Below, piece by piece: positions 12,290-12,685 of a stretch of 24,000 nucleotides of DNA (the stretch's first letter is position 1; each line of letters starts with the position of its first letter). Position numbers and translations under genes: made by a program. The stretch comes from Dyella ginsengisoli (lineage in GTDB: Bacteria > Pseudomonadota > Gammaproteobacteria > Xanthomonadales > Rhodanobacteraceae): NCBI RefSeq assembly GCF_044904665.1, contig NZ_JADIKM010000001.1:1467995-1491994 (forward strand), written 5' to 3'. A model generated the notes under the pieces. The model searched no databases. It saw only the letters and a list, made by a program, of their open reading frames with translations, and was not told where the DNA came from.

Positions 12290-12685
12290 ATGCCGACCAT
12301 TACCGCGGATTTCAATCACGGTCATAACCACGGCCCCATTTTCTCGCGTGGCGAAAATGCCGTTGATCGTCCCGTCAATGACAGGCGGGCGCCATCGATC
12401 AACGTGCGAGCCTACGCGCCGGCCTTGTATGCGCATATCAACGCCGTGAACCGACTCAGACGCTCTCCATGGGCATGCGCTGAAGCGCAGGCGCTGTCCA
12501 AGTTGCTCTGGTACATCAGGCGTGCCGGTTACGTCATCGACTTGAGCCGGATCACGTTTGGACGCCCCACGGGTTATGACGGCGCCGAGCTCTGGACACC
12601 CTGCGAAAACTGCCTTGAATGGCTCGAGCAGGCCGGTGGCTGGGGGCCGGACGTCACCTACCGGATCAGGCCGGAGTTGCAATAG
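12290..12685 (+). CDS. Minimal (131 aa) deaminase-fold protein, CAE / PCxxC type
   Basis: ATG at 12290 preceded by a strong AAGGAGGG RBS. PWACAEAQAL (Cys codon 12476), 38 residues, then TPCENCLEW (12599-12613) give three-Cys zinc ligands plus the catalytic Glu, as in CDA-type deaminases. The local DNA is noticeably less GC-rich. Confidence 0.6.
   Translation: MPTITADFNHGHNHGPIFSRGENAVDRPVNDRRAPSINVRAYAPALYAHINAVNRLRRSPWACAEAQALSKLLWYIRRAGYVIDLSRITFGRPTGYDGAELWTPCENCLEWLEQAGGWGPDVTYRIRPELQ

Follow-up and report, generated by a model that had tools for sequence, protein, structure and literature searches.

A candidate zinc deaminase-superfamily cargo effector of 131 residues in a type VI secretion system cluster of Dyella ginsengisoli

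Several toxins that a type VI secretion system (T6SS) delivers have a zinc-dependent deaminase fold. DddA (BaDTF1), SsdA (BaDTF2), and BaDTF3 (PMC7901873, PMC12494967, PMC13346905) each form the C-terminal domain of a large PAAR/Rhs-type protein, with an immunity gene located directly downstream, and the toxin deaminases of the YwqJ family (PF14431) are C-terminal parts of large polymorphic toxins that are, likewise, accompanied by adjacent immunity genes. Many DUF4157 toxins of extracellular contractile injection systems (eCIS) lack immunity genes, and one deaminase, EAT11, kills both bacteria and yeast (Geller et al. 2021, PMC8213781); an N-terminal eCIS_core/DUF4157 domain followed by a C-terminal toxin is the standard layout of eCIS toxins, among them a deaminase that has been validated (PMC8213781). 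In the deaminase superfamily, Iyer et al. distinguished a C-terminal hairpin division, where strands 4 and 5 run antiparallel, with no helix 4 between them, and in which a CxE motif is common, from a helix-4 division, to which the OTT_1508 family belongs (PMC3239186). The T6SSs of Dyella are classified as group 3, are described as 'very similar' to the anti-amoeba T6SS of Xanthomonas citri, and contain a variable region of a few kilobases (PMC6653060). Here, we report on a stretch of 24,000 nucleotides of the Dyella ginsengisoli genome (contig NZ_JADIKM010000001.1, positions 1,467,995 to 1,491,994; hereafter, the window) that contains such a T6SS cluster and, more specifically, on a gene in its variable region that encodes a deaminase-like protein of 131 amino acids (positions 12290 to 12685 of the window, plus strand). 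With a probability of about 0.5, we propose that this protein is a stand-alone zinc deaminase-superfamily cargo effector of the Dyella group-3 T6SS and represents a new, minimal, derived clade of the C-terminal-hairpin type.

The 131-codon open reading frame (ORF), assigned on the basis of translation, selection, family searches, and AlphaFold modeling, is a real gene under strong purifying selection. Compared with an 80% identical copy at locus L001, its differences are distributed 12/12/54 over codon positions 1, 2, and 3, with 48 synonymous and 15 nonsynonymous codon changes. Compared with a 93% identical copy in a Dyella metagenome-assembled genome (L009), the distribution is 2/1/25, with 24 synonymous and 2 nonsynonymous changes, and the two proteins are 98% identical. 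The spacers flanking the cargo genes of the variable region are less conserved than the coding regions (82 to 90% identical to L009); on these grounds, the 278-nucleotide spacer directly upstream of the gene (12012 to 12289), with an identity of 82%, as opposed to 93% for coding sequence, is taken to be non-coding. The initial annotation had described a coding-like frame at exactly these coordinates, and both the frame and its boundaries held: the start codon is the ATG at 12290 to 12292, and the stop codon ends at 12685. The encoded protein has a predicted mass of 14.8 kDa and a pI of 8.6. A Shine-Dalgarno-like sequence, AAGGAGGG, can be read at 12277 to 12284 (plus strand), with a gap of 6 nucleotides between its GGAGG and the ATG. 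An upstream start at 12215, which would yield a protein of 156 amino acids, was rejected, since the homologues all open with MPxI at the position corresponding to 12290; DNA homology with L001, which begins at 12290, also contradicts it. Two overlapping ORFs, one on the minus strand (11999 to 12682) and one on the plus strand (12045 to 12449), were ruled out by codon-position statistics; long spurious ORFs are plentiful in the window, the GC content of which ranges from 60 to 77%. The gene has a GC content of 0.61, compared to approximately 0.67 overall, and was initially said to lie in the most AT-rich part of the window. That is roughly right, although the value for positions 12001 to 12400 (0.595) is only tied for lowest with that for positions 801 to 1200. 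A scan of positions 11900 to 14000 returned neither sigma-70-like promoters nor intrinsic terminators, which fits co-transcription of the gene with the adjoining cargo genes.

The protein belongs to a very rare and previously unannotated family. An indexed search of 5.8 billion proteins returned 3 close relatives, while HMMER, run exhaustively against 1.84 billion cluster representatives, yielded 29 matches. Only five loci were found in a scan of 185,579 species genomes (two in Dyella, two in Paraburkholderia, and one in Blastocatellia), and a metagenome scan retrieved six loci carrying a family gene. A further member is encoded by Duganella callida. Literature searches produced no description of the family. 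Its members are 122 to 181 amino acids long and are nearly all stand-alone proteins; the 131-residue protein, too, stands alone, in agreement with its initial description as a minimal protein without an accessory domain. A match to P0019, a repetitive surface protein of 4449 amino acids with nine short matches, was discarded as spurious, since it lacks the motifs.

The motifs in question are contained in the segments WACAEAQAL, which holds C63-A64-E65 (codons at 12476 to 12484, plus strand), and TPCENCLEW, which holds P104-C105-E106-N107-C108 (codons at 12599 to 12613, plus strand), and 38 residues (66 to 103) separate E65 from P104, as had been noted before. In an alignment of 36 members (28 to 89% identity), C63, A64, E65, A68, C105, C108, and W111 are invariant, and 90% or more of the sequences share G21, N23, R27, L69, P104, N107, and L112. 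Because the motif columns are the most conserved of the family, the motif is not coincidental, and the scenario in which close homologues would lack the CAE/PCxxC residues did not materialize: CAE, C105, and C108 are present in 36/36 members. C63 is the predicted first zinc ligand, with E65 as the predicted catalytic glutamate, and C105 and C108 are the predicted second and third ligands. Three cysteines plus a glutamate, without a conserved fourth ligand anywhere in the alignment, is a pattern that would fit a catalytic, rather than a structural, zinc site.

Kinship to known deaminases was assessed with a comparison profile built from 15 genuine PF00383 cytidine deaminases. The family profile aligned to it with hhalign at a probability of 79% (E value of 1.6e-5, score of 38.9, 59 columns), with CAE, strand 3, PCxxC, and the final strand all in register. 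Reversed profiles, in comparison, scored 14, and 120 column-shuffled profiles reached a mean score of 12.7 (standard deviation, 2.7; maximum, 24.6). A search of PDB sequences with the family profile returned only mouse cytidine deaminase (1zab), at an E value of 1.3 and with the motifs, again, in register. Among the 34 members scanned against Pfam, 13 weakly matched dCMP_cyt_deam_1 (best E value, 3.6e-3) and 11 weakly matched YwqJ-deaminase (best E value, 5.5e-4), while every other Pfam family was matched by one member only. These alignments suggest that the family is distantly homologous to cytidine deaminases, and we consider it probable that it belongs to the deaminase superfamily as a new, derived clade. 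The suggestion, made in the initial annotation, that this is a cytidine-deaminase-type protein is supported in part: the profiles link the C-terminal half to these enzymes with the motifs in register, and no match in Pfam or Foldseek rises above threshold. We had also considered whether the strongly conserved G21-x-N23 might correspond to the ribose-binding GCN[IV]EN motif of cytidine deaminases, but this idea was dropped, as hhalign gave no reliable alignment of the N-terminal part.

Members of the deaminase superfamily are built on a three-layer alpha/beta/alpha core whose five strands are ordered 2-1-3-4-5; a [C/H/D]xE motif begins helix 2, and a PCxxC or CxxC motif begins helix 3. AlphaFold models of two family members are confident and mutually consistent, with pLDDT values of 94.5 (pTM of 0.89; the 131-residue protein) and 89.8. 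Both models contain five strands and run, in order, through strands 1 and 2, a helical insert, a long helix starting from CAE, and strand 3; after a loop, PCxxC occupies one helical turn, and a beta-hairpin closes the chain. In the model of the 131-residue protein, C63-A64-E65 is located at the start of a helix spanning residues 64 to 78 (DSSP), a first insert (residues 23 to 62) contains helices between residues 36 and 52, and a second insert comprises residues 92 to 103. Its hairpin consists of strands 112 to 116 and 123 to 126, connected by a 6-residue turn; in the second model, strands 108 to 112 and 119 to 122 are arranged likewise. These predicted structures match the division with a C-terminal hairpin defined by Iyer et al., down to the inserts of the YwqJ/SCP1.201/BURPS668_1122 group (PMC3239186). 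By automated comparison, the predicted fold is only loosely deaminase-like: the sole weak Foldseek matches to recur were eight entries for small cytidine or blasticidin deaminases (TM score of 0.28 to 0.40), and the top match of the second model was the T6SS toxin SsdA (9c63; E value of 1.0, TM score of 0.27 to 0.29).

Among described enzymes, the CDD/CDA and blasticidin-S deaminases (PF00383; 1zab, 3mpz, 2z3h) resemble the family most closely. These proteins have roughly 120 to 146 amino acids and no accessory domain, have a helix that begins with CAE, followed some 35 to 40 residues later by PCxxC, use three cysteine ligands and a glutamate, and end in a beta-hairpin, and it is to them that the profile alignment described above applies (probability of 79%; the motifs as well as strands 3 and 5 lie in register). 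However, the 131-residue protein lacks helix 1, is left with approximately one turn of helix 3, and has a helical insert of 40 residues between strand 2 and the CAE helix. Furthermore, the family consensus reads PCxNCxxWL rather than PCxxCR, no conserved glutamate follows the last strand (compare Table 1 of PMC3239186), and the gene is found in a T6SS cargo setting rather than in one of pyrimidine salvage. Toward the YwqJ toxin deaminases, some of which carry CxE, the family shows weak Pfam similarity, and the two inserts of the 131-residue model (residues 23 to 62 and 92 to 103) are also found in that clade. Nevertheless, all of these Pfam matches remain below the cutoff of 25.9 bits. The Gx[CH]xE signature is absent, as the position 2 residues before the cysteine is occupied by Y, F, or W and never by glycine, and there is no family-wide histidine in the insert that separates strand 2 from helix 2 (H49 is conserved in the Dyella subgroup only). 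At the sequence level, then, the family has neither the PCxxCR signature specific to the CDD/CDA clade nor the Gx[CH]xE signature that marks the YwqJ clade. To neither DddA nor SsdA did the family profile show a PDB sequence match, and the Foldseek similarity to SsdA mentioned above is not significant. In terms of architecture, a mostly stand-alone family contrasts with the C-terminal domains of YwqJ-type toxins and of DddA, SsdA, and BaDTF3, as does the lack of a conserved partner of the 131-residue protein. One member, P0028, is built like an eCIS toxin of the EAT11 type, with an N-terminal eCIS_core/DUF4157 domain and the family domain at its C-terminus, whereas the protein encoded in the window has no DUF4157 domain and is part of a T6SS, not an eCIS, locus.

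A link to a cargo role comes from the genomic distribution of the family gene within Dyella-type T6SS clusters, where it lies between clpV and PAAR/vgrG. Six loci, representing four variants of the variable region, were compared: the window and L009, L001 and L014, L010 (Dyella agri), and L017. Of the 16 distinct cargo genes encountered, the family gene alone is present in all six loci, with identities of 100, 98, 88, 88, 44, and 40%. While clpV remains at approximately 84 to 87% DNA identity across the variants, the family gene drops to 40 to 44%. In L001, L014, L002, and L017, it directly follows clpV. Outside these clusters, a copy in another lineage is situated in an island together with a gene for a DUF4123 T6SS adaptor and one for a PAD-domain protein. 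In P0030, as in the eCIS-like P0028, the family domain is C-terminal, at the extreme end of the protein.

In the window, the gene is flanked by two toxin-like genes. Upstream lies a nuclease-like cargo gene (11328 to 12011, plus strand; Pfam Endonuclea_NS_2, PF13930, E value of 6.9e-14) and downstream lies a gene encoding an OTT_1508-like deaminase of 249 amino acids (12831 to 13580, plus strand; Pfam PF14441, 33.7 bits at a cutoff of 27) with an HAE...PICPLC motif. The latter had been called a second, unrelated deaminase-like gene, and rightly so: it is a genuine member of Pfam OTT_1508, a family from the other division of the superfamily, and hhalign revealed no relation of the 131-residue family to this gene or to the cargo gene at 10600 to 11253, although comparing a profile with a single sequence makes this a weak test. 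Both the nuclease gene and the OTT_1508 gene are confined to the window and L009 and are absent from L001, L014, L010, and L017, all of which keep the family gene. With both neighbors missing from four of the six loci, the 131-residue protein would be neither a partner of the one nor an antidote to the other, and we rejected both ideas as the principal explanation of the locus.

How might such a protein work? In the mechanism that we propose, C63, C105, and C108 would hold a catalytic zinc ion, with water as the fourth ligand, and E65 would shuttle a proton so that a base, in all likelihood the cytosine of a nucleic acid or nucleotide, is deaminated by hydrolysis. Having no delivery domain, the protein would have to be loaded non-covalently, either in the lumen of Hcp or on the VgrG/PAAR tip, and would then be injected into the target cell, where it would act alone and not in concert with the adjacent OTT_1508 deaminase. 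What we infer for the 131-residue protein comprises the binding of zinc, activity as a deaminase, the substrate, secretion, toxicity, and the type of target cell. Of the three roles put forward in the initial annotation, an independent toxin is the one that we favor; those of a partner subunit and of a decoy or regulator are disfavored, since three of the four variants (four of the six loci) have the family gene but no OTT_1508 gene.

A considerable number of results weigh against the proposed effector role or against deaminase kinship itself. The 131-residue protein matches no Pfam or NCBIfam model, and none of the Pfam deaminase models reaches its threshold with any of the 34 members scanned. 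The hhalign homology is limited to the C-terminal 60 residues or so, and greedier or global settings added nothing reliable for the N-terminal half. The models have no N-terminal helix 1, helix 3 (after PCxxC) is vestigial in both (3 to 4 residues, or about one turn), and Foldseek found no significant match in PDB or BFVD (best E values of 0.6 to 1.0, TM scores of 0.27 to 0.40). The pI ranges from 5.0 to 9.8 across the family, without a consistent charge suited to nucleic acid binding, and none of the known T6SS effector markers was found in the 131-residue protein. The gene also occurs as an orphan, surrounded by housekeeping genes and with flanks free of T6SS genes, in six or more separate contexts (Duganella, two from Paraburkholderia, and several contigs from metagenomes). 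Finally, no neighboring gene is common to different contexts, no conserved immunity gene adjoins the family gene in any of them, and the spacers beside it are non-coding.

Some of these observations would be accounted for if the protein were a cytoplasmic, non-secreted deaminase of small molecules or nucleosides, serving salvage or antibiotic detoxification like CDD or blasticidin-S deaminases, in a T6SS region that merely collects horizontally acquired genes. Its size and CAE/PCxxC signature would suit such an enzyme, to which the weak Foldseek and hmmsearch matches also point, and neither the missing secretion markers and immunity gene nor the orphan copies among housekeeping genes would be surprising. 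We nonetheless regard this explanation, the principal competitor of ours, as unlikely. It is hard to reconcile with a gene that is the only one kept in all four cargo-slot variants and yet diverges much faster than the core genes, that in one instance adjoins a DUF4123 adaptor gene, and whose encoded domain follows eCIS_core/DUF4157 in P0028, at the C-terminal place of a toxin, and is also C-terminal in P0030. Moreover, the protein lacks PCxxCR and the strand-5 glutamate, its N-terminal half cannot be aligned to cytidine deaminases, and the family, with 5 loci in 185,579 species representatives, is extremely rare, unlike what is usual for a metabolic enzyme.

That same constancy across the four variants, together with the frequent position directly after clpV, the lack of an immunity gene, and the failure of Foldseek to recognize the fold as that of a deaminase, could also point to a non-catalytic, zinc-binding accessory protein of the T6SS, for instance, one that, as an adaptor or chaperone, places other cargo on PAAR/VgrG. 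We give this possibility little credence, as an invariant glutamate two residues past the first cysteine, combined with only three ligands, would be a catalytic signature, and as the structural genes are far better conserved between Dyella variants than this gene, with its identity of 40 to 44%. Orphan copies in genomes without T6SS genes nearby, and a domain that forms the C-terminal part of an eCIS_core protein, also speak against an accessory protein. Least plausible of all, in our judgment, and indeed very improbable, is a role as immunity protein for the upstream Endonuclea_NS_2 nuclease or as inactive-looking regulator or partner of the OTT_1508 protein. Orphan immunity genes are common near T6SS loci, and a small gene between two toxin-like genes, neither of which has an obvious immunity gene, would be well placed for such a role. 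However, L001, L014, L010, and L017 retain the family gene without nuclease or OTT_1508 gene, the orphan copies elsewhere have no such neighbors either, the catalytic-type residues are invariant, the family domain takes the toxin position in P0028, and hhalign shows no relation to the OTT_1508 neighbor.

Several copies of the family gene have features of their own. More than half of the members carry a low-confidence C-terminal tail of 20 to 35 residues with a conserved [FW]-P-x-[LF] motif at its end, frequently with an acidic residue in front of it (EFPDL, DFPAL, SWPAL, and NFPPLG; for example, in P0004, P0010, P0032, P0036, and the L017 member at 354 to 815). The tail, which is absent from the 131-residue Dyella subgroup, could serve as a short linear motif through which the protein is loaded or contacts a host target. 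In the L017 member, the gene of which directly follows clpV, serine replaces the conserved proline (HSCGNC) and 'EWPEQ' replaces 'xWLEx'; its active-site region is either divergent or degenerating. A copy in a DUF4123/PAD effector island, at positions 8001 to 8423 of L006, L007, and L008 (also found in L018 and L019), has an in-frame TGA at the codon for C108, the second cysteine ligand of CxxC, as well as a proline-to-leucine change in the PCxNC motif, while the frame following the TGA is intact and fits the family consensus (SAWLEDAGGWGPEKTYKL). Selenocysteine recoding of the TGA was rejected, because RNA stability resembling that of a selenocysteine insertion sequence was not observed (z of 0.39); the three contigs are identical and, hence, provide no independent test. 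The simpler explanation is that this copy is probably a recent pseudogene, that is, a recently inactivated toxin gene.

The T6SS cluster in the window starts with tssB, tssC, hcp, tagJ/impE, tssF, tssG, and clpV, the last of which encodes the T6SS ATPase (7218 to 9953, plus strand; Pfam). The 6.7-kb variable cargo region follows, extending from the end of clpV to the start of the PAAR gene (9954 to 16653, plus strand), as delimited by Pfam matches of the flanking genes and by comparison with L001, L009, L010, L014, and L017. Beyond it lie the genes for PAAR, a TPR-methyltransferase, VgrG, DUF6931, an FHA protein, and TssK. The vgrG spike gene (18301 to 20445, plus strand) is recognized by Phage_GPD, Phage_base_V, and Gp5_trimer_C. 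The PAAR spike-tip gene, which closes the variable region and encodes 95 amino acids (16654 to 16941, plus strand), has a GC content at third codon positions (GC3) of 0.93 and aligns with a gene of L001 that matches Pfam PAAR_motif; it sits within a spurious ORF of 681 amino acids (16290 to 18335). The real TPR-methyltransferase gene probably starts near 16950, and in L001, it and the PAAR gene are called separately. Directly upstream of PAAR, two other loci encode a protein of 164 amino acids without a Pfam match (L001, 11124 to 11618; L010, 6707 to 7201; 93% identical), which is absent from the window and from L017.

The variable region itself contains seven intact genes and one frameshifted gene. 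In order, these encode a 167-residue protein of no recognized family, a 217-residue protein with an HCAE...PCLLC motif, the Endonuclea_NS_2 nuclease, the 131-residue protein, the OTT_1508 deaminase, a 346-residue protein of no recognized family, the frameshifted product, and a 145-residue protein that is, again, of no recognized family. In all seven intact genes, substitutions relative to L009 are concentrated at third codon positions, and all are under purifying selection. None of the seven, including the nuclease gene, has an obvious immunity partner. The gene for the 217-residue protein (10600 to 11253, plus strand; GC3 of 0.88, with 33 synonymous versus 4 nonsynonymous changes against L009) did not match any Pfam family at an E value below 0.5. 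Its product combines a cysteine-rich, zinc-ribbon-like N-terminus (MANYKCKNDKC...KCTKCGK) with a C-terminal motif of the HxE/PCxxC type ('SHCAERAL ... RPCLLCC'), and it may represent a third deaminase-like gene of the variable region. The OTT_1508 gene also starts with a cysteine-rich, zinc-ribbon-like segment (12831 to 12910, plus strand; MARCPECRENL...HARDCSRW), followed by a charged stretch rich in arginine and glutamate; the cysteine-rich N-terminus common to these two deaminase-like cargo genes might be a loading or targeting module. The frameshifted gene (15041 to 15544, plus strand) is a copy of a gene for 167 amino acids that is intact in L017 (1261 to 1764). Its two frames (15022 to 15606 and 15194 to 15544) meet near 15240, and the surrounding segment (14941 to 15770) is missing from the otherwise collinear L009, so that we are dealing with either a decaying gene or a sequencing error.

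In the corresponding slot of D. agri DKC-1 (L010, 4675 to 5784), a cargo protein ends in a genuine FYVE zinc finger ('RRHHCRRCG'; Pfam, 68.5 bits at a cutoff of 27.8). As FYVE is a eukaryotic module that binds phosphatidylinositol 3-phosphate, its presence suggests that this T6SS lineage carries anti-eukaryotic cargo; no publication on T6SS effectors with a FYVE domain turned up in a literature search. A eukaryotic target could also be the reason that an immunity gene is missing next to the 131-residue gene, which would fit with the FYVE protein, with the anti-amoeba relative in X. citri, and with the many eCIS toxins that have no immunity gene. Alternatively, the immunity gene might be located distally, or the protein might be a non-toxic cytoplasmic enzyme after all. 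Taking the hints from the FYVE protein and the recurrent C-terminal [FW]PxL tail of its relatives one step further, we tentatively speculate that the family is a minimal branch of deaminases (122 to 181 amino acids, without helix 1 and with a vestigial helix 3) that has become an immunity-free, constant cargo, acting as an anti-eukaryotic deaminase of nucleic acids or nucleotides, although we consider this specific scenario doubtful.

Bacterial toxin deaminases such as DddA and SsdA have become genome-editing tools, every new clade of them has come with a substrate preference of its own, and a small protein is of value where delivery is concerned. If activity were confirmed, the family described here would add an unannotated clade, without a neighbor in Pfam, NCBIfam, or PDB, that combines a length of 131 amino acids with a confident model and a complete zinc site of the catalytic type, and it could provide a very compact scaffold for base editing. 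Should the protein instead serve salvage or detoxification in the cytoplasm, it would be an ordinary, though divergent, deaminase. If, on the other hand, it is the effector that we propose, T6SS deaminases would gain a stand-alone representative that has no immunity partner and comes from a lineage with a Xanthomonas relative that defends itself against amoebae, and the protein would bear on the resistance of soil bacteria to predators and on the limits to which the deaminase fold can be reduced.

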